The notes under the pieces were generated by a model. The model saw nothing but the letters and a program-made list of their open reading frames with translations, did not search any database and was not told the DNA's origin. DNA of 45,453 nt from Escherichia phage vB_EcoS_SD276. Location: sequence record OR911938.1, one strand, 5' to 3'. This document shows positions 2,025 through 44,060 of the stretch, one piece after another. A program made the position numbers and the translations under genes. The first letter of the stretch is position 1. The number at the start of each line of letters is the position of its first letter.

Positions 2025-3545
2025 ATGACCGTTAACGTTGACAACCAGCACCCGCTCTATGCGCGCATCGCGCCAGAGTGGAAAATGATCCGTGACTGCG
2101 TAGCAGGGGAGCGCGCCGTGAAGGCGTGCGGCCCATTATACCTGCCACACCCAGCAAGCGGCGACACCACCGACCCGAAATCACGGGCACGGTATAAGGC
2201 GTATAAGCAACGTGCTGTCTTCCTGAACGCCACCGCCCGCACACTGAATGCATTGTTAGGCGTTGCCTTCGCCAAGCCGGTGAGTATAGACCTTACTGGG
2301 GCAATGGCGGACCTGATTGATGACGTAGACGGCAGCGGTATGCCTCTGGCGCAACTCCTGCGCGGCGCTATGTCGGAAGTGCTGCAATCAGGCCGTGCCG
2401 GTTTTATGGTGGACTACGACCGCCAGGCTAACTTTGATGAACTTGGTAACGTAGTGCCGCAGACAGCCGCTGAGATGGCGGCACACCGCCCGCTTATCCG
2501 CCTGTATACGGCAGAGCAGATCATCAACTGGCGGCAGACCCACGGTGTCGACACGCTAATCGTGCTGAAGGAAACGGACGAAATCAGCACCGAAGACCCG
2601 GACGACTTCGCAAACCACGAGGTAACCATCTGGACCGAGCTTCGCATGATTGACGGCAAGGCACATGGTCGACGCTGGTTTTACAACGCGGACACGTCAG
2701 ACGTGCAGATGGACTTGCCGCGCGGCTTCACCCGCACCGACTTAGTGCCGCTGGTGGATGCCTCCGGTAATGCGCTTACTCAACTGCCATTTTGCTGGTG
2801 TGGTGCTGTGGACAACAACGCGACGCCGGACGCCGCACCGCTGGCGGATATTGCATCCATCAACATTAAGCACTACAACGCCGAAGCAGACGTCGCCGAG
2901 ATTGCGCACATTGTGGGCCAACCTACACTCATTGCGACCGGTCTGACCCAATCATGGGCCGATAAAAACCTGAAGGGCGGCATCGCACTAGGCGCGACTA
3001 AGGGCGTTATCCTGGGGCAGAACATGGACGCTAAACTTCTTCAGGCGGAGGAGCGCAACTTGTCTGTTGCCCTGTGTGAGCGTCGAGAATTGCAAATGGC
3101 TAAACTGGGCGCTGCCCTGGTTGAGAAAGGGACTGCACCTAAGACGGCAACCGAAGCGGCCTACGATGCGCAGACCGATAACAGTATCCTGTCGCTTATT
3201 GCCGGTAATGTTGAGAAGGCTTTCAACCGTGCGCTGCAAATCGTCCAGCTATTCACGGGAGACACCGCAACCCAGCAAGTCACGTTGAATAAGTTTTACA
3301 CCGAGATCACGGTAGACGCACAGCTTATGACCGCGATGATGGCAGGTGTGCAGACCGGTACTGTCCGACTGGCTGACTTTATCAAGTGGATGATGGCCCA
3401 GGGCGTCATTGATGACTCGCAAACCGTTGAGCAGGTGGAAGACGAATTGCGAAATCAGAATCCATTGCCTCAAATGTCCCCGGATGCGGTAGAATCTACC
3501 GAAGAAGACCCGGACAAGGTAGCGGACAATGGCGAAGACAATTAA
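2025..3545 (+). CDS. portal protein
   Basis: 506 aa ORF directly after terL, acidic C-terminal tail; size and synteny typical of portal. Confidence 0.75.
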   Translation: MTVNVDNQHPLYARIAPEWKMIRDCVAGERAVKACGPLYLPHPASGDTTDPKSRARYKAYKQRAVFLNATARTLNALLGVAFAKPVSIDLTGAMADLIDDVDGSGMPLAQLLRGAMSEVLQSGRAGFMVDYDRQANFDELGNVVPQTAAEMAAHRPLIRLYTAEQIINWRQTHGVDTLIVLKETDEISTEDPDDFANHEVTIWTELRMIDGKAHGRRWFYNADTSDVQMDLPRGFTRTDLVPLVDASGNALTQLPFCWCGAVDNNATPDAAPLADIASINIKHYNAEADVAEIAHIVGQPTLIATGLTQSWADKNLKGGIALGATKGVILGQNMDAKLLQAEERNLSVALCERRELQMAKLGAALVEKGTAPKTATEAAYDAQTDNSILSLIAGNVEKAFNRALQIVQLFTGDTATQQVTLNKFYTEITVDAQLMTAMMAGVQTGTVRLADFIKWMMAQGVIDDSQTVEQVEDELRNQNPLPQMSPDAVESTEEDPDKVADNGEDN

Positions 3546-5080: not shown

Positions 5081-5845
5081 TTAGCGCGGAATGCCGCAAA
5101 TCTCGTTGAGTGTTTTCACATCCAGCGCCACCGCCGTGGATTTTGGCTTGTCCGGGTATGGGATGAATTGCTCAACTTCAGGCCATGCCTTAATCAGCTT
5201 CTTGTCAGTGTTGTGCAGGTCCAGCACACCGGTAACGGTGAGTTTGAACGCATCATACTTCGCGCGCAACTCGCGACGGGCCTTGTCGTTGCGGTCCAGG
5301 CGCTTACAGAAGTCATGGTCCGCCGGGTAATCAACGCGACCGCGTGGGAGATATATCGGCAGCGCTTTCCCATCCTCGTCCACTTCGCACACTGACGCGA
5401 GCATAACTGTCTCGAACCCCGGAACGATATCGCCGAGATCAGGCGCGAGCTTATTCATATATTTCTCTTCCCAGTATCCGCGATGTACGCGGTATTGGCG
5501 ACCGTCACCGCTCAAGGACAAGGTGCGAACATTTCCGCCTGCGTTGATTTCGAAAGTGGCGTCGTAAACGCTGCCGATACCTTTCGGGCGGTCGGTGTTA
5601 TAACTATACGTCGCCTTGTTGGTGTATACGCTGACGCCGTACATCTGCGACTGGTCATCGCGGATTGACAGGATATGCTCGCGTAGCGAGGCGAATGTGC
5701 GAATGCCGTCCGGCATACAGTCCAGCGTGATTGCGTACGCCAGGTCGCGAGAGTCCATCATGATTGTTTTGGCTACGGTAGCGATTTCGTGGTCGCGCAG
5801 GATGTTAGCCAGGATCTGATTTTTAATGTCTTTTGTCAGTCTCAT
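5081..5845 (-). CDS. hypothetical protein (254 aa), antisense cassette gene 2
   Basis: Long ORF on opposite strand to flanking late genes, RBS GAGGACACAAAA-ATG, ends at bidirectional terminator 5057-5079. Confidence 0.6.
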   Translation of the reverse strand: MRLTKDIKNQILANILRDHEIATVAKTIMMDSRDLAYAITLDCMPDGIRTFASLREHILSIRDDQSQMYGVSVYTNKATYSYNTDRPKGIGSVYDATFEINAGGNVRTLSLSGDGRQYRVHRGYWEEKYMNKLAPDLGDIVPGFETVMLASVCEVDEDGKALPIYLPRGRVDYPADHDFCKRLDRNDKARRELRAKYDAFKLTVTGVLDLHNTDKKLIKAWPEVEQFIPYPDKPKSTAVALDVKTLNEICGIPR

Positions 5846-5884
5846 TTTTGTGTCCTCATTATTGGGGCTTTCGCCCCGATTGGT

Positions 5885-6199: not shown

Positions 6200-6234
6200 T
6201 TTGTCTTCCTTCATATCTCTGTTGGTGTGCAACC

Positions 6235-6264
6235 AATATACCGCAACCAACATTCGCAATGCAA
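6235..6264 (-). promoter_or_regulatory. sigma70-like promoter for antisense cassette (TTGCAT-N18-TATATT)
   Basis: Hexamers read on minus strand; followed by GGTTGCACACCAAC and RBS. Confidence 0.5.
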
Positions 6265-22312: not shown

Positions 22313-22340
22313 GTATTACACCGCTCAACCAGGATTGCAA
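22313..22340 (-). promoter_or_regulatory. promoter-like element upstream of lipoprotein gene (TTGCAA-N16-TAATAC)
   Basis: Hexamers on minus strand with TTGGTTGCAA motif. Confidence 0.35.
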
Positions 22341-22360
22341 CCAATTAAGAGGATTTAGCT

Positions 22361-25432: not shown

Positions 25433-25987
25433 TTATTTCAGTGCACCAGTCACCAGTGTTTTTTCCATGTTACGGAAATCTTCCTGCGTCATGCAGATTT
25501 TCGATCCGTCTTCGCCGGTGAGCACGACCATAGGCTGGACGTCCTGGGCTACAACTCCAAAATTGGCGGCCCTAACAGTCTTGCCGAACGAGGCCACCGT
25601 GTCCTCTGCAACGCGAATTGCGCTGTTATACGCATTAATCTCGCCGTCCAGGCGCACTGACAGGCCTTTGAGGCTATCGTATTGCGCTGCCGTTGTATCG
25701 ATCTGAATCTCGTCATGCACGGTCATGTAAGACTCGCCCAGCAGGGCGGCATACGCCACCAGATCCACGATGTTATCTTCCTGGTGCTTACGGTGCTGGC
25801 GCACCAGCTTCAGGCAGATCAGGAAAGTCCAGGCTTCTTGCTCGGTAAGGTCGCGCCCGGTAAGCGCGTTAAACACGGCGGCGACCTGTTTAGCGCTGCG
25901 TTCTTCTTTCGCGTTGTCATAGCCGTTTTCTTTTCCGCGCTGTTCCATAGTGGTGGCGGCGTTTTTGCAGTATTCGTATGCTTTCAC
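25433..25987 (-). CDS. hypothetical protein (184 aa; GTG start)
   Basis: ORF preceded by sigma70-like promoter (26034-26063) and leader hairpin. Confidence 0.5.
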   Translation of the reverse strand: MKAYEYCKNAATTMEQRGKENGYDNAKEERSAKQVAAVFNALTGRDLTEQEAWTFLICLKLVRQHRKHQEDNIVDLVAYAALLGESYMTVHDEIQIDTTAAQYDSLKGLSVRLDGEINAYNSAIRVAEDTVASFGKTVRAANFGVVAQDVQPMVVLTGEDGSKICMTQEDFRNMEKTLVTGALK

Positions 25988-26033: not shown

Positions 26034-26063
26034 ACTATAGTGCAACCAACCTATTGGTTGCAA
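26034..26063 (-). promoter_or_regulatory. sigma70-like promoter (TTGCAA-N18-TATAGT)
   Basis: Hexamers on minus strand, GGTTGC boxes in spacer, followed by leader hairpin. Confidence 0.5.
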
Positions 26064-26521
26064 GTGAATTTTGCAACGTTTATTGCGTAAATTTTCGGGA
26101 CCAAATCACCACACGCCCGACGAATCGCCGCGATGTTCTTCTCGCAATCTTCAATGATGACCAGTTCCGATACGTCCGCGTAACAGACCATTTTGAACAC
26201 GGCGCACGCCTTAAACTCAGGCGGCGGGGTGTCGTCCAGCATGTGGCGCATAAACAACCGGCCTACTGGGAAGACCTCCAATTGCTCCGCGGTGGTGTCC
26301 CAACATTCTCGCTGCCGGTTGGTCAGATACGCGATCTCGAAGCCTTGCTCTTTATACATGCGCAACAACGGCAGCATATCCATGTTCAGGTCTTCGCGGA
26401 CGTGTGCTTTGTGCCACTTCGCCCAAAAGGTGGATTTAGTTTTTATGCCCGGCACCAGATCGGCACGCGCATCGCTTGAACCGTTAATAACGCCATCCAA
26501 ATCGCAAATCAATAATTTCAT
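26051..26521 (-). CDS. HAD-superfamily hydrolase (phosphatase-like)
   Basis: N-terminal HAD motif I LICDLDGVI and downstream acidic motif IIEDC. Confidence 0.55.
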   Translation of the reverse strand: MKLLICDLDGVINGSSDARADLVPGIKTKSTFWAKWHKAHVREDLNMDMLPLLRMYKEQGFEIAYLTNRQRECWDTTAEQLEVFPVGRLFMRHMLDDTPPPEFKACAVFKMVCYADVSELVIIEDCEKNIAAIRRACGDLVPKIYAINVAKFTCNQ

Positions 26522-26742
26522 TTTAAACTCTCAATAAGGGTGTAACGGGCGCTTCGCGCAGTAAAGGAGTTGCACACGAAATGGCAACGCTGAGTCATGA
26601 CAAGCCAACCGGTGAGGTCAAGGCCCATGATGTATTCGTGGCGAGACGCGCGCACCACACGATTGCGTCGCGGGTCAATACCGTAGTCTTTTTGCATTTG
26701 GTCTACTACCGCGGGGTCGCGGTCAACGATTAAGATATTCAA
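26518..26742 (-). CDS. hypothetical protein (74 aa)
   Basis: Overlapping start/stop with flanking genes in operon. Confidence 0.35.
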   Translation of the reverse strand: MNILIVDRDPAVVDQMQKDYGIDPRRNRVVRASRHEYIMGLDLTGWLVMTQRCHFVCNSFTARSARYTLIESLK

Positions 26743-27208
26743 GGAGTTCTCCTTCGCTCATTATTTCAATTTGTGCGCCGCCGAAGGGTGGCGCTTCGTC
26801 GAAGATTATCAATTGCTGGCACTTGTTATTGCTAGGCCCGACTTCGCCGGTGACGGCGTGTATAAATCTAATCCGCCAGTCCAGAAGAATTATCAGGTTT
26901 GCAGTCTTCCTGGCCAGCTTCGCCCACTTCGTCGACGTGTCCTGATTCAGTAGCATGACCGTCCGGCGTCCGTGCGCTGCGCACTTTACCCACGGCAGCG
27001 GATCGGAGTACGGCGGATTGCACCACTTCCACCCTTTCAACTCGGACCAGTCCACATCAAGCGCGCTGTGTTCTGCAGTGAAGTAACGCGGTAGCAGGTG
27101 GTTTGCATCGCTTGCCGCCATATCGTAACGGAATCGGTACTTCCGGCGAAGCGGTTTAAATAAAGCTGGTGGCGTGCGCCAGCTATCTTTTTGCTCACTC
27201 TTCAGCAT
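26723..27208 (-). CDS. DNA N6-adenine (or N4-cytosine) methyltransferase, phage Dam-like
   Basis: Catalytic tetrapeptide NPPY within WCNPPYSD; small size typical of phage Dam-family enzymes. Confidence 0.65.
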   Translation of the reverse strand: MLKSEQKDSWRTPPALFKPLRRKYRFRYDMAASDANHLLPRYFTAEHSALDVDWSELKGWKWCNPPYSDPLPWVKCAAHGRRTVMLLNQDTSTKWAKLARKTANLIILLDWRIRFIHAVTGEVGPSNNKCQQLIIFDEAPPFGGAQIEIMSEGELLEYLNR

Positions 27209-27659
27209 GGTCGGGATCTATCGCATACAGGGCAATCTTGTCACCTTTTTTCAGGATTCGCTGCAATCGCTGCGTCTCCGACACACCTAAAGGGCGCGCG
27301 TCCGGGTAGAAGTTGCCGTTTGTGGGGTTGCGCCACGCCATAAGCACCAGATCTTTCCGGTCGATCTTAGACTGGCGGCCCTTCGGTCGCACGTACTCCT
27401 CGGCCCGTTTGCAATGCTCGCGCAGACCTTCGGCGGTGACGCGGTTTAGTGCAACGCTGGTGGTGTATCCGGTGCGCTGCATAATCCCCATCAGTTCGAA
27501 AAGCAGTTCGAAGCGCTCCTCTAACTCTATGCGACGCTTTTCTTCCGTTTCATAGCTTAACAGGTAGGTATCCGCCAGCGCGTTCGCACGTTCGGCCTGT
27601 TCGCGGGCTTCGAGGCATTGCGCGGCCCAGTAATTTTTCTCTTCTTGTAAAATTTTCAT
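27195..27659 (-). CDS. hypothetical protein (154 aa)
   Basis: ORF downstream of promoter 27706-27734 (minus) and leader hairpin; start chosen at MKILQEE. Confidence 0.45.
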   Translation of the reverse strand: MKILQEEKNYWAAQCLEAREQAERANALADTYLLSYETEEKRRIELEERFELLFELMGIMQRTGYTTSVALNRVTAEGLREHCKRAEEYVRPKGRQSKIDRKDLVLMAWRNPTNGNFYPDARPLGVSETQRLQRILKKGDKIALYAIDPDHAEE

Positions 27660-27705
27660 CGTGTTGTCTCCAGGTATTAAAAAGGGCGTCCAACCGGACA
27701 CCCTA

Positions 27706-27734
27706 AATATAATGCAACCAATATGATTATGCAA
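27706..27734 (-). promoter_or_regulatory. sigma70-like promoter (TTGCAT-N17-TATATT)
   Basis: Hexamers on minus strand, TTGGTTGCAT repeated twice. Confidence 0.55.
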
Positions 27735-27739
27735 CCAAT

Positions 27740-28063
27740 TTACGCATAAAAGTTAGGATCGCGCGCTACGTCTACCAGATACAGGTTACTAATGCGGTTG
27801 CCGTAATGGCCTGGCGTGCGCTGACGGCACACAACGGCGAAGCCTGGGGGGATTGTATTGCCGGTCGCGATAATCCACGCCACGCGTGCGCCAGACAGCG
27901 TCTTGCCGTTGCATTCGATACGAGTACCGCCATCGGCAGTATTGAGGTTGCCAATCTTGCAGCCTGTTGACTTAAGGCGGATAACGCCGGTCTTGCTGTC
28001 GTAGGAAAAAAGCTGATTGGTCATTGCCACTGAAAAGTCGATGGCGTCGAATGCAGTATTCAT
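27740..28063 (-). CDS. HNH-like homing endonuclease-like protein (degenerate)
   Basis: 107 aa; overall pattern of small phage HNH/NUMOD4-like proteins (Gly-rich beta hairpin region, C-terminal H/N residues) but catalytic motif not clean. Confidence 0.35.
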   Translation of the reverse strand: MNTAFDAIDFSVAMTNQLFSYDSKTGVIRLKSTGCKIGNLNTADGGTRIECNGKTLSGARVAWIIATGNTIPPGFAVVCRQRTPGHYGNRISNLYLVDVARDPNFYA

Positions 28064-28755
28064 TTTAAATTTTCCTCGTTAACCGCTATCGCGAAGCCGC
28101 GCGGGGTGAGCGACCTGATTAATTTGGTGCGGGCAGATTTGCCTCCGAGGCGACTATACTGCTTCGAGTAACCTTTTTCAACGAAAACAGGTTTCTTCTC
28201 TGGCATACGGAAGCCGTTGCCGGTCCATAAGCAGGTCAACTTCGGATATGAATCGCGGGCGTTGATGTATTCAGGGAATAACGGGTGTACGTCATCCTCT
28301 GGCAAATAGCCTCCATACTCCCACGGGTCAAACGAGTGGTCCGGTTTACGCCATTGAGTGGAAAGCACACTGCGCGGATTCTCAATCATATACGGCACTT
28401 CGAAGAAATCACCCAGGTAAGCGGCGATCTTCGCGGTGCGCACCGCCTTAAGCTGGAAGGCAGGGTCTTTTGCACGCTTACGCGGGAACGCTGGCGCACC
28501 ACTAACCGCCAGATCCGTACACGGCGGGAATGCATAGATGATATCCGGCGTGCCGAAATCACCATTCATCGCGCGGTCCACGAAGTCCAGATCGATAAAC
28601 TCATTACGATATCGGATACCGCGCCCATAGATCCGGTAGTCCAGGTACGACCCGTGATCGGCTTCGGAGTAGTTGAAGCAATAACACTTATGCCCCATCT
28701 CGGCAGCACGCTCAATCATCAAGCCGCTGCCGTCAAACAATGACCAAATTATCAT
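28060..28755 (-). CDS. compact DNA cytosine-C5 methyltransferase-like protein
   Basis: Motif I SLFDGSG (FxGxG), motif IV FPPC (PC), motif VI ENP (ENV-like), QWRK after it; only 231 aa so variable/target-recognition region is very short. Confidence 0.5.
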   Translation of the reverse strand: MIIWSLFDGSGLMIERAAEMGHKCYCFNYSEADHGSYLDYRIYGRGIRYRNEFIDLDFVDRAMNGDFGTPDIIYAFPPCTDLAVSGAPAFPRKRAKDPAFQLKAVRTAKIAAYLGDFFEVPYMIENPRSVLSTQWRKPDHSFDPWEYGGYLPEDDVHPLFPEYINARDSYPKLTCLWTGNGFRMPEKKPVFVEKGYSKQYSRLGGKSARTKLIRSLTPRGFAIAVNEENLK

Positions 28756-30176
28756 TTGCGCGCCTTTTTAGCTTTCATGTATTCCATCAAGTCGTCCTGG
28801 ATATCGCGCTTACTGTCGCGACGCTCGGCGACCAGTTCATCCAGTGTGCCGCGCGCCTGGATAATGTAGACGAATACCGGACGAGGGTGTCCGGCTTGCA
28901 TCTGGCGGACAGGCCCGATACGCTCCACGATCTGCGCAAAGTGCTCATAGTTCCAGGTGTCTGAGAAGATAGCAAGGTGGTGCCCGCCATCCTGCAAGTT
29001 AAGGCCGTGACCCGCCGATGCCGGGTGTGCGAACATGATGGGGATCTCGCCCCTGTTCCACGCTTCCATATCCTTATTGCCTTGCTTACCCTTACCCATA
29101 GCGACGCCGTGTGGGAATTTCTTCTTAAGACGTGCCAGATCATGCTTGTACTGGTATGCGACGAGCAACGGTGCTCCGTTCAACTCCTCCACGATACTTT
29201 CCAGCGCGTCCAGTTTAGCGTCGTGAATTTTCACCCATTCGTCGGTGCGCTCGCCGTCTTCGTCGACTTTATATACGGCCCCGGAAGCAAGCTGAAGGCA
29301 CTTAATAGTCTTCGACGCGGCGTTAGCCGCCTCCACTGTTCCGCTTTCCAGTTCCGCAAATAGCTCCGCTTCGAACTGGTCATAAATCTTGCGGGCTTTC
29401 TTCGGCAGGTCCACAACAACCGGCGTATAGATTGGCTTGTCACATCCGAAGTATTCAGCCGCGTCAACGGTGAGCGATACGTCAGACAGGCGTTGTTGTA
29501 TTTCTTTCTCGGAGTTCTTTAGCGGGGCGTGCTGCATAGTGAAGCTGCCAGGCTTAACAGGCTTGCTAATAAACCAGCGGTCTGTGAATGCCTTATAACT
29601 ACTGCCGAGGCGTTCGCCACCGTCGACAAACCACGTCTGACCCCATAGGTCTTTCAGTCCGTTTGGTGCGGGTGTGCCGGTAAGGTTAATCCAGCGCTTG
29701 ACGCGCTTATGTGCGATCGCCGCCAGGGCGCGGGCGCGCTTACTTCCCTGCTTGCTGCGGTAGCCTTTCAGCTTAGTGGATTCATCGGCAACAACGACCG
29801 TAAAGGGCCACTCGTCGCCGCAATAGTCAACCAGCCACTCAACCACATCATAGTTAACACAAACCACGTTAGCGTCGCTCTCAAGCGCGGCGATGCGGTC
29901 CTTCTCTGACCCGGTGCCGTCTACTACCAGCAGGGCGGGGAAGCGCCATTTTTCTTGTTCCGGGGGCCATGTGCCCGATGCAACGCGCAGCGGGGCAAGC
30001 ACCAGTACGCGGTCCTCCTGGTTTGACAGGATGCCGGTCTGGAACATTTTATTCAGCGCCCACATGGTCGCGCCGGTTTTACCCGACCCCATTGTCGCCC
30101 AAATATTGCAGCGCTTATGCTTGAGGATGAACGCGGTTATCAACTTCTGATATTCGCGACGTCGGAAACGTGCCAT
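28752..30176 (-). CDS. ATP-dependent helicase (SF2, DEAD/SNF2-like)
   Basis: Walker A ATMGSGKTG, motif II VVADESTKLK, C-terminal helicase domain; start taken at MARF with SD AGGCGGA. Confidence 0.75.
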   Translation of the reverse strand: MARFRRREYQKLITAFILKHKRCNIWATMGSGKTGATMWALNKMFQTGILSNQEDRVLVLAPLRVASGTWPPEQEKWRFPALLVVDGTGSEKDRIAALESDANVVCVNYDVVEWLVDYCGDEWPFTVVVADESTKLKGYRSKQGSKRARALAAIAHKRVKRWINLTGTPAPNGLKDLWGQTWFVDGGERLGSSYKAFTDRWFISKPVKPGSFTMQHAPLKNSEKEIQQRLSDVSLTVDAAEYFGCDKPIYTPVVVDLPKKARKIYDQFEAELFAELESGTVEAANAASKTIKCLQLASGAVYKVDEDGERTDEWVKIHDAKLDALESIVEELNGAPLLVAYQYKHDLARLKKKFPHGVAMGKGKQGNKDMEAWNRGEIPIMFAHPASAGHGLNLQDGGHHLAIFSDTWNYEHFAQIVERIGPVRQMQAGHPRPVFVYIIQARGTLDELVAERRDSKRDIQDDLMEYMKAKKARK

Positions 30177-30441: not shown

Positions 30442-30615
30442 TTATTTTTGCTCTGCGCGGTAGCGGCGCTGCCGTTCGCGCTCTTTTTTATTGCGGCACG
30501 ATTTGCACTCTGCCCGATACCCGTCCGGGCTTCGCGCAGTCTTACCGGTGTATTTATGGAACTGGGATAGCGGTTTAACGCAGCCGCAATTACTGCAACG
30601 TTTTTCTTCAATCAT
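30442..30615 (-). CDS. small zinc-ribbon protein
   Basis: CSNCGC...CKSC four-Cys pattern, basic C-terminus; downstream of promoter 30647-30675 (minus). Confidence 0.4.
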   Translation of the reverse strand: MIEEKRCSNCGCVKPLSQFHKYTGKTARSPDGYRAECKSCRNKKERERQRRYRAEQK

Positions 30616-30646: not shown

Positions 30647-30675
30647 ACTATACCGCTATGCGACCAATTCAGCAA
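30647..30675 (-). promoter_or_regulatory. sigma70-like promoter (TTGCTG-N17-TATAGT)
   Basis: Hexamers on minus strand upstream of zinc-ribbon gene. Confidence 0.45.
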
Positions 30676-30934
30676 CCAATAAATCACAGTCGGCAATGTT
30701 GTCTATAACGCGAACGTCAGCGCCGCGGCGGGCCATCCGCTCGTGTTCTCGTACCTGGTGCGGCTTAGGTTTGCCGCCTGGGCGCTTCACTTCGACGAAC
30801 ACTATTTTGCCGTTGATGATGATAATCAGATCGGGCGCACCCGAGCGCCCCTCCCATGCCACTTTGCGGCAGAATCCGCCGACGGCTTTCACCCGTCCCA
30901 TCAAGTGACTTTGAATCTTGCCTTCTGGTGTCAT
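30656..30934 (-). CDS. VRR-NUC domain nuclease
   Basis: Motif PDLIIIINGKIVFVEVKRPGGKPKPHQ (D...E-V-K...Q) typical of VRR-NUC; overlaps polymerase stop. Confidence 0.55.
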   Translation of the reverse strand: MTPEGKIQSHLMGRVKAVGGFCRKVAWEGRSGAPDLIIIINGKIVFVEVKRPGGKPKPHQVREHERMARRGADVRVIDNIADCDLLVAELVA

Positions 30935-34229: not shown

Positions 34230-34294
34230 TTTCCAATTCCTCATTTTCACATGTATCGGGGTTATTGTGAGCCACCCCGTTCGGCTTGGTTGCT

Positions 34295-34323
34295 AATCTA
34301 CTTGGTTGCGCCTAAGCGGTCAA
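34295..34323 (-). promoter_or_regulatory. sigma70-like promoter (TTGACC-N17-TAGATT)
   Basis: Hexamers on minus strand upstream of SSB-like gene, GCAACCAAG boxes. Confidence 0.5.
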
Positions 34324-37208: not shown

Positions 37209-37237
37209 AATATTAGATTGGTTGCAGAAGGGAGTCA
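37209..37237 (-). promoter_or_regulatory. leftward early promoter (TTGACT-N17-TAATAT)
   Basis: Hexamers on minus strand in the divergent control region, GCAACCAATC box in spacer. Confidence 0.55.
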
Positions 37238-40338: not shown

Positions 40339-40493
40339 AAATCCGGGATTGCAAAATACACGGCAGCACATTGGAAATCGCGGTCGTCGACGAACTAGGC
40401 AACCAATGCGAGATGCGGAATGGTGGGTGGAAAATGCAGTTTGCATTTGCAACGGATAGCGATCGACTTTTTCATACGCGTGATTAATATTGG

Positions 40494-40522
40494 TTGCATT
40501 CGTGCCCGCACCCTGCTAGATT
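40494..40522 (+). promoter_or_regulatory. sigma70-like promoter (TTGCAT-N17-TAGATT)
   Basis: Followed by GGTTGCACACCAAC, the same motif that follows the -10 of promoter 6235-6264. Confidence 0.5.
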
Positions 40523-40550
40523 GGTTGCACACCAACATGAGGACCGAACA

Positions 40551-43859: not shown

Positions 43860-43889
43860 TTGACTTGCAACCAACATAGACGCCATACT
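43860..43889 (+). promoter_or_regulatory. possible promoter (TTGACT-N18-CATACT)
   Basis: Weak -10; lies after terminator 43831-43857 and before phosphoesterase gene. Confidence 0.3.
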
Positions 43890-44060
43890 GCGACCAACCA
43901 AGAAGAGGAGTAATCAAGATGGCACGTAAAGACGTTTGGGTATTGGCAATCTGGACCGCCGCGGCTTTTATCGGCATGGTTATTTGCGAATTGAGATAGC
44001 CCGCCGCCATATGGACCGTGGTATATTGTCCACGGTCCAATAATCAGGAAGTAATTAAAT

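Follow-up and report, generated by a model that had tools for sequence, protein, structure and literature searches.

Within 2.7 kb of the genome of Escherichia phage vB_EcoS_SD276 (record OR911938.1; "the window" is the whole stretch of 45,453 nucleotides analysed here), positions 26,051 to 28,755 code for six small proteins, among which a first-pass annotation recognised a Dam-like methyltransferase, a cytosine-C5 methyltransferase-like protein, a HAD-type phosphatase and an HNH-like protein. The question raised by this locus is whether the six genes form a joint anti-restriction or DNA-modification module, as that annotation proposed, or whether they act separately. Our analysis indicates that the region is quite probably an ordinary segment of a Dhillonvirus replication operon, holding two independent solitary methylases and four unrelated accessory genes. 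All six open reading frames (ORFs) of the first-pass annotation were found where it had placed them, on the minus strand. In the order in which they are read, the features are the following.

28060..28755, minus strand: compact Dcm-like cytosine-C5 methyltransferase, 231 aa (phrog_757, 2e-82)
27740..28063, minus strand: degenerate HNH_3-related protein, 107 aa (phrog_99, 4.2e-16)
27660..27739, minus strand: conserved intergenic regulatory element (repeats, -10-like box, hairpin, T-run)
27195..27659, minus strand: p154, 154 aa, Dhillonvirus-specific (phrog_10530, 1.1e-94)
26723..27208, minus strand: Dam-like adenine-N6 methyltransferase, 161 aa (Pfam PF05869, 9.8e-36)
26518..26742, minus strand: Ksap1 (p74), 74 aa (phrog_10685; TTG start after AAGGAG)
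26051..26521, minus strand: stand-alone HAD phosphatase, 156 aa (phrog_415, 1.9e-36)

The cluster sits in a long minus-strand operon, which also codes for a DUF2800/PD-(D/E)XK nuclease, an Enc34-type single-stranded DNA (ssDNA)-binding protein, a family-A DNA polymerase and an SNF2 helicase. Because it encodes nuclease, ssDNA-binding protein, polymerase and helicase, we consider this operon to be a replication/recombination module, and its earlier description as an "early operon" agrees with this gene content. Stop and start codons overlap as ATGA between the helicase and Dcm-like genes, between the Dcm-like and HNH-like genes, and between ksap1 and the HAD gene. Longer overlaps, of 14 nt and 20 nt, join p154 to the Dam-like gene and the Dam-like gene to ksap1. 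The only intergenic gap in the cluster is the element at 27660-27739, which is near-invariant in 6 Dhillonviruses. It contains direct TTGGTTGCA repeats at 27738-27730 and 27721-27713, a TATATT box resembling a -10 sequence and, at 27704-27683, a hairpin AGGGTGTCC-GGTT-GGACGCCCT followed by TTTTT, after which comes the ribosome-binding site of p154. The hairpin fold of the element has an energy of -16.4 kcal/mol (z = -3.3). In locus L018 the hairpin sequence differs, and by our reading of the alignment its arms are still able to pair. This promoter/terminator-like element divides the cluster into two blocks, one made of the helicase, Dcm-like and HNH-like genes, the other of p154, the Dam-like gene, ksap1 and the HAD gene.

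Comparison of the 2.7-kb region with phage records gave 157 matches at 80-95% nucleotide identity with a like gene order, and in 144 of these a single match spans at least 80% of the query. The matching records are almost all Escherichia/Shigella phages of the genus Dhillonvirus (HK578-like coliphages), and the annotated Dhillonviruses Oekolampad/Bas18, BMA1 and SECphi18 have the same gene order. The G+C content of the window is 52-58%. The locus is already known, its genes being annotated in more than 150 sequenced Dhillonviruses, BASEL reference phages included.

Does the cluster hold together outside this genus? A sample of 80 viral contigs coding for a Dcm-like protein was assembled, and the 6-kb flanks of the gene were searched for the other five proteins. 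The cluster is common to 14 Dhillonvirus-like loci. None of the 66 others, whose Dcm-like proteins are 52-65% identical, contained the HAD, p74 (Ksap1), p154 or HNH-like gene within 6 kb (66/66), and a Dam-like gene was present within that distance in only 2. Small hypothetical genes surround the Dcm-like gene of Tunavirus ISF001, Webervirus NJS1 and Krischvirus Phi1; that of Vequintavirus nomo adjoins a primase/helicase. Where Drexlerviridae carry both methylases, these are 6-8 kb apart, and on opposite strands in KarlJaspers. The set is also incomplete in some members of the genus: p154 is missing from loci L014 and L019, which keep Dam, Ksap1 and HAD; L018 lacks HAD and Ksap1 and keeps Dam and p154; and GeorgBuechner has a truncated HAD gene. 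As for proximity itself, two given genes among the approximately 20 of the operon are no more than 3 positions apart with P ~0.28. For four given genes in a run of 6 the value is P ~0.03, which applies only if the HAD and HNH-like genes are counted, post hoc, as "modification-type". The clustering of modification-type genes is not remarkable.

Family searches with the six proteins and their neighbours revealed no base-hypermodification enzyme, but only methylases, a phosphatase, a degenerate HNH protein and replication proteins. True hypermodification clusters, such as the 7-deazaguanine operon of Queuovirinae (PMC8594841), share with the present region an early/replication location in a small siphovirus, and the presence of "modification" labels. 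In contrast to that operon, the family searches yielded here only two plain S-adenosylmethionine (SAM) methyltransferases; enzymes of base exchange, nucleotide modification or sugar transfer were not among the matches. Dhillonviruses are more restriction-sensitive than Queuovirinae (PMC8594841), and in the BASEL work they were comparatively or moderately sensitive to the restriction-modification (RM) systems tested (PMC8594841; PMC11990801). The description "DNA-modification-type genes" holds for two of the six, the Dam-like and Dcm-like genes, and fails for the HAD, HNH-like and Ksap1 proteins, which have no base-modification function. The cluster ought not to be classed among DNA-hypermodification systems.

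We next consider what each gene encodes, beginning with the two methylases. The Dcm-like protein is a real compact cytosine-C5 methyltransferase (C5-MTase), member of a known and characterised kind, and its first-pass naming as "C5-MTase-like" was right by motifs, by fold and by homology to a characterised Dcm. It has F7-D-G9-S10-G11 as motif I, P77-P78-C79-T80 as motif IV, E125-N126-P127 as motif VI, typically E-N-V, and RSLTPRG as a sequence resembling motif X. In an alignment of 27 family members FxGSG, PPCT and ENP are invariant, together with WR, GGYL, LGGK and RSLxPRG. The protein nevertheless had no Pfam match even at E <= 10, so that the threshold of PF00145 is missed, and none in NCBIfam or PADLOC. 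A precomputed PF00145 match exists for 3 of the 120 homologues listed. The PF00145 model is not suited to so divergent and compact a family. It is also large, with 2,886 protein-database clusters and 1,511 phage records; its members, 225-250 aa long, occur in Dhillonvirus, Drexlerviridae including Webervirus, Vequintavirinae, Krischvirus and Kagunavirus. Direct PDB sequence searches were uninformative for the Dcm-like and Dam-like proteins alike, so that the Dcm-like protein could be placed among known structures only via structure prediction and fold search. The AlphaFold (AF2) model was of high quality (pLDDT 91, pTM 0.89), and its top Foldseek matches were all C5-MTases, the nearest being the catalytic domains of DNMT3A/3B (E ~1e-6).

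The closest point of comparison with experiment is the dcm gene of KarlJaspers (Bas06) and of its relative K42, whose genome is 95.4% identical to KarlJaspers/Bas06 (10.1101/2023.08.16.553469). The window protein is 54% identical, over its full length, to the product of the 711-bp KarlJaspers gene (1e-86). Both enzymes are compact (~230-236 aa for the KarlJaspers/K42 type), and C79, E125 and K172 of the window protein correspond to C82, E128 and K175. The setting differs: dcm of KarlJaspers lies among small genes on a separate strand, whereas the Dhillonvirus gene follows the SNF2 helicase in the operon. In K42, the 711-bp dcm was responsible for 5-methylcytosine (5mC) in the msDNA of retron Ec86, detected by LC-MS, and a CCWGG site was needed; the C82A/E128A/K175A/K176A mutant was inactive, and dcm loss led to escape from retron Ec86 (10.1101/2023.08.16.553469). 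The same preprint likewise compares the structure of K42 Dcm with DNMT3A/B (10.1101/2023.08.16.553469). By analogy with the K42 enzyme, the Dcm-like protein would most likely form 5mC at CCWGG.

The Dam-like protein matches Pfam PF05869 with 123.4 bits (cutoff 28.1) over profile positions 4-146 of 169, and has NPPY at residues 64-67, within WKWCNPPYSD. The earlier call of an NPPY-motif Dam-like methyltransferase is confirmed by this family and this motif. Its best PADLOC match is "orphan methyltransferase" (2.3e-11), and its identity is 31.6% with the product of the T1 dam gene, 36% with Stx-phage Dam and 31% with KarlJaspers Dam, a homologue of 233 aa against 161 aa here. With the small phage Dams of PF05869/TIGR01712 (T1, Stx/VT-2, HP1) it shares the NPPY motif, the solitary state without a partner nuclease and the location in a replication-gene region. 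Members of the small phage Dam family have GATC as their specificity. The window enzyme would, most likely, write N6-methyladenine (m6A) at GATC. Its identity as a non-specific adenine methylase of the Hia5/Hin1523 type was considered and dropped, as nothing tied those enzymes to this small NPPY protein. They are set apart by description only, with DPPY and FxGxG motifs and a target-recognition region of ~90 residues (PMC3299994). The Hia5-type identity is also disfavoured because Dhillonviruses were not broadly restriction-resistant in BASEL.

The window contains 187 GATC and 153 CCWGG sites, with observed to expected ratios of 0.88 and 0.92, so that neither is avoided or enriched. This lack of avoidance fits protection by methylation, and proves nothing. 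In a separate count CTAG was rare in the whole window, with 16 sites observed against 52 expected under a Markov model (ratio 0.31). Self-methylation against restriction would be a sensible role for each of the two methylases taken by itself. Among the results that would refute its module, the first-pass annotation had named phage DNA carrying only host-type methylation. Such an outcome would not refute it, because GATC and CCWGG marks of the host type are precisely what enzymes of the Dam and Dcm kinds should leave. Methylases are, moreover, triggers of retrons: Dcm of Eco1/Ec86, and Dam of Sen2 (PMC12640716).

For the third of the genes with a recognisable enzyme family, the claim of a HAD-type phosphatase is borne out by the four HAD motifs, by phrog_415 and by a profile match to Pnkp1. 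The motifs are D7-L-D9-G-V11 (I), T67 (II), K104 (III) and E124-D125 (IV), and D7, D9, R69 and D125 are invariant in the alignment. Family models are matched below their cutoffs (Pfam Acid_phosphat_B, 23.8 bits against 27; NCBIfam HAD-SF-IIIA, 15.2 against 44.6). When a six-sequence profile was searched against the PDB, it matched Pnkp1 (4xrp, 4.7e-8), which is an RNA-repair enzyme, a class-B acid phosphatase (2i33, 1.2e-4) and, weakly, T4 polynucleotide kinase (1ltq, 0.06); phrog_415 itself is labelled "polynucleotide kinase". The DxDGV, S/T-N-R, K and (E/D)D motifs are shared with the phosphatase domains of PNKPs (Pnkp1, T4 Pnkp) and with class-B acid phosphatases. Unlike PNKPs, the window protein stands alone in 156 aa, lacking both a kinase domain and a partner ligase. 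It most likely acts as a 3'-phosphatase that heals the ends of broken nucleic acids; failing that, it would be a nucleotidase. No link between it and base modification was found.

The HNH-like protein keeps the ancestry which its name suggests, as attested by phrog_99 and phmmer, and has lost the canonical catalytic residues. Against Pfam HNH_3 it scores only E = 0.11 (12.6 bits, for a cutoff of 24.8). An exhaustive phmmer search yielded 15 hits in 1.84 billion representatives, its distant relatives being bona fide PF13392 proteins, some with AP2. At the canonical H-R, D-H and NLR positions the protein has A59-R60, V78-C79 and N93-L94-Y95; Val-Cys has taken the place of the catalytic Asp-His, and Ala that of the first His in the HNH_3 core. 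The N-terminal part and HNH_3 core are homologous to those of HNH_3/AP2 homing endonucleases (PF13392 + PF00847), R60, W63, N89-R90 and N93-L94 being kept. The differences are the lack of AP2 and a fixed position in the Dhillonvirus loci carrying the gene, instead of a sporadic one. An indexed search found five close clusters, on contigs of 46 kb at most, of which the sole named one is Escherichia phage SSL-2009a. We think that this protein is most likely an inactivated relic of the homing-endonuclease family.

Two small proteins had been left as unknown by the first-pass annotation. This still applies to the 154-aa protein, and no longer to the 74-aa protein, which corresponds to the published Ksap1. 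For p154, no Pfam or NCBIfam match was obtained even at E <= 10, and there is no KxDG in the sequence. Its relatives form 214 clusters; the 120 listed are all at least 77% identical, on contigs of ~45 kb at most. The AF2 model, of low confidence (pLDDT 60), shows one long helix and short elements, and no alpha/beta nucleotidyltransferase fold. A longer, TTG-started ORF extending to 27734 was discarded as the p154 gene, the PHROG match beginning at Met26. In several records, SECphi18 gp53 included, p154 is labelled "DNA ligase", a name inherited by phrog_10530; one record states "Possible DNA ligase but no evidence". An ATP- or NAD-dependent DNA ligase was rejected on sequence grounds, given the absence of both domain match and KxDG. 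p154 is predicted to be a lineage-specific helical protein, not a ligase.

Ksap1 was described as a 74-aa protein of Dhillonvirus SECphi18, encoded between the methyltransferase and phosphatase genes and bound by Klebsiella Avs2 (Bechon et al. 2024, PMC11564622). The 74-aa protein of the window is 84% identical to SECphi18 gp51, with 12 substitutions and equal length, and its gene likewise has the Dam-like gene on one side and the phosphatase gene on the other. Judged by its sequence, it is Ksap1, the published trigger of Klebsiella pneumoniae Avs2. Residues L47 and T50, at which escape mutations occurred, are present in it, and natural Ksap1 variants with 14 differences already escape KpAvs2. 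Among the Dhillonvirus loci L007 to L019, Ksap1 identity is 57-96%, falling to 31% in L019, and the flanking genes are far less divergent. At L007, for instance, identity is 99% for HAD and 95% for Dam, compared to 59% for Ksap1. This divergence fits the published escape of natural variants from KpAvs2. SECphi18 escape mutants with partial deletion of ksap1 and of the upstream gene are viable (PMC11564622). From the SECphi18 gene order, that upstream gene is the Dam-like one, and the viable deletions imply that intact Ksap1, and apparently an intact Dam-like gene too, are dispensable on laboratory E. coli. The label "acid phosphatase", given to Ksap1 in the SECphi18 RefSeq record (gp51, NC_073071.1; positions 2780-3004 of locus L120), has no search support and does not fit.

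How, then, should the arrangement of these genes be explained? A single anti-restriction or (hyper)modification module of all six genes, in which the HAD and small proteins would assist methylase chemistry, appears very unlikely to us. Such a module would account for 2.7 kb of coding sequence on one strand with overlapping stop and start codons, for an arrangement kept in ~150 Dhillonvirus genomes, for the nominal P of ~0.03 and for the label "Nucleotide modification associated protein" which the next downstream gene has in SECphi18. Common descent alone would, however, give rise to synteny inside a single genus, and once the conserved order is explained by descent the joint-module reading is left unsupported. 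It also runs against the 66 outside loci devoid of HAD, p74, p154 and HNH-like genes, the separation of Dam and Dcm in Drexlerviridae, the individual losses inside the genus and the promoter/terminator-like split. The absence of any hypermodification enzyme from the family searches, the RM sensitivity of Dhillonviruses and the viability of SECphi18 mutants lacking parts of ksap1 and of the upstream gene point the same way. Poorer still are the chances that the Dcm-like and HNH-like genes are a mobile methylase-nuclease pair, that is an RM-like or homing cassette, which we regard as extremely improbable. Their ATGA overlap does couple them, the HNH-like protein comes from a homing-endonuclease family, and the Dcm-like family is spread over many unrelated phage groups. 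But the HNH-like protein has neither the canonical Asp-His nor AP2, it is confined to the 15 matches and five close clusters mentioned above, and it is never beside Dcm in the 66 non-Dhillonvirus loci.

Another possibility is that p154, Dam, Ksap1 and HAD alone form a functional unit, in which a PNKP-like phosphatase would work with an adenine methylase (for example in end-healing or nucleotide-pool sanitation), p154 and Ksap1 being accessory or regulatory. The four genes are joined by overlaps of 14, 20 and 4 nt behind one conserved promoter element, and HAD homologues (25-36% identity) are found ~0.9-1.7 kb upstream of an adenine methylase in Schitoviridae and the jumbo phage SonariX. In 15 of 15 such loci examined (L090-L093 and L109-L119, from Schitoviridae and Enterobacter phage SonariX) the order was PolA, HAD, membrane protein, Dam; roughly half of these loci have one more hypothetical gene following HAD, and PolA identities were 32-83%. 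The Dam of these phages, of 268 aa and with a DPPY motif, has no detectable similarity to the window Dam. Two unrelated lineages, Dhillonvirus and Schitoviridae/SonariX, thus have a HAD of this subfamily and an adenine methylase separated by ~0.2-1.7 kb. Two lineages are few, however, and in both the genes lie in replication modules, where methylases are common. The losses in L018, L014 and L019 and the truncated HAD of GeorgBuechner also speak against a four-gene unit, and no Drexlerviridae record occurs among the HAD homologues, though this family carries Dam-like genes. We know of no reaction linking a HAD phosphatase to SAM-dependent methylation. Altogether we hold the four-gene unit to be unlikely, and give an equally low chance to the narrower idea that the PNKP-like HAD is functionally tied to phage adenine methylation. 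Were it true, the block would represent a methylation-linked unit not recognised before, and the question of why Avs2 watches Ksap1 would become tractable.

Several observations weigh against our preferred reading, that of a replication-operon segment with two solitary methylases and four unrelated genes. Translational coupling within the blocks, taken with the proximity of HAD and Dam in Schitoviridae, leaves room for some functional coupling in the p154-Dam-Ksap1-HAD block. In the BASEL data on small siphoviruses, methylase genes and restriction resistance were not linked in any simple way (PMC8594841), so that the protective benefit of the methylases is unproven. The specificity of either methylase is, for SD276, inferred. 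Identity of the Dam-like protein with T1/Stx-phage Dam does not exceed 31-36%, and its 85.1 bits fall under the equivalog cutoff of NCBIfam TIGR01712 (97.05). In the Dcm-like protein, L173 stands at the position of K176 in K42 Dcm, which is among the four residues changed together in the dead mutant. The HNH-like subfamily, finally, keeps a His in a "GHY" insertion, through which residual nuclease activity may persist.

Under the reading of separate genes, the segment, part of an early/middle replication operon, would be vertically inherited, as six functionally distinct genes in two translationally coupled blocks. Both methylases would be solitary, with no partner nuclease; co-expressed with the replication genes, each would methylate the new phage DNA independently. 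Full GATC and CCWGG methylation could then protect against systems cutting unmethylated sites, whatever the Dam/Dcm status or capacity of the host, and sensing by retrons would be the cost of carrying methylases. Ksap1, for which no function for the phage is known, would be sensed by Klebsiella Avs2. For two of the six proteins a role as immunity trigger has been published: retron Eco1/Ec86 responds to the Dcm family, and Klebsiella Avs2 to Ksap1. With Dam added, three are sensed or sensable by known defences, which makes the locus a convenient one for the trade-off between self-methylation and detection. The value of the analysis is otherwise corrective: the label "DNA ligase" for p154 lacks support, "acid phosphatase" is out of place for Ksap1, and the active site of the HNH-like protein has probably been lost.

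The TTGGTTGCA repeats of the intergenic element are not confined to it. Ten exact copies of this 9-mer are present in the window, and 25 with at most one mismatch, compared to 11.9 +/- 3.5 in shuffles. They are found at 6228-6250, 22336-22344, 26041-26062, 27713-27738, 30659-30679, 34286-34310, 37218-37226, 40490-40529 and 43866-43897. Copies are mostly paired, 12-31 bp apart, those checked being just 5' of start codons, and a TATAxT box follows one base after three of them. TTGGTTGCA has the appearance of a phage motif, promoter or operator, distributed over the whole genome. The internal promoters mentioned in the first-pass annotation are retained for the conserved 27660-27739 element and for a site at 26034-26063, TTGCAA-18-TATAGT, which overlaps an inverted TTGGTTGCA pair. 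They are not retained for generic sigma-70 sites, a scan for which gave 7 against 5.1 +/- 2.1 in shuffles, with no enrichment. The convincing regulatory signal is this phage-specific element. An extra gene of ~240 bp lies in the interval from the HNH-like gene to p154, directly after the promoter/hairpin element, in Oekolampad (bas18_0034, 5604-5846 of locus L001) and in L018 (~5480-5740), and is absent from the window.

The features bordering the cluster are the following.

28752..30176, minus strand: SNF2-family DNA helicase, upstream neighbour (Pfam SNF2-rel_dom 3.6e-11; phrog_62 4.5e-157)
26034..26063, minus strand: promoter-like site TTGCAA-18-TATAGT, at the 3' end of the HAD gene, reading into the DUF6378 gene
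25433..25987, minus strand: DUF6378 protein, 184 aa, downstream neighbour (Pfam PF19905 2.4e-9)

The helicase start was set at Met31 of a 504-aa ORF, after the 1425-bp genes annotated in Oekolampad and BMA1. The DUF6378 gene, besides its SECphi18 RefSeq label already quoted, is called "phosphofructokinase" in PHROGs, and a PDB sequence search with its product gave no relative. Upstream of the helicase, at 30442-30615 on the minus strand, a 57-aa CxxC...CxxC zinc-ribbon ORF matches phrog_5558, "Lar-like restriction alleviation protein" (6.5e-17), as well as families of endonuclease VII and of HNH zinc ribbons; Pfam gave no match for it. In BMA1, upstream genes are labelled "Lar-like restriction alleviation" and "restriction endonuclease". 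The Lar-like label is ambiguous, and this ORF may represent an anti-restriction gene outside the six-gene cluster. Finally, three oddly named records match the locus with more than 80% nucleotide identity or the HAD protein at 99%: Acinetobacter phage NJ01, a "Campylobacter phage" record and Sodalis phage SO-1. Such unlikely host names suggest host mis-assignment or laboratory carry-over.

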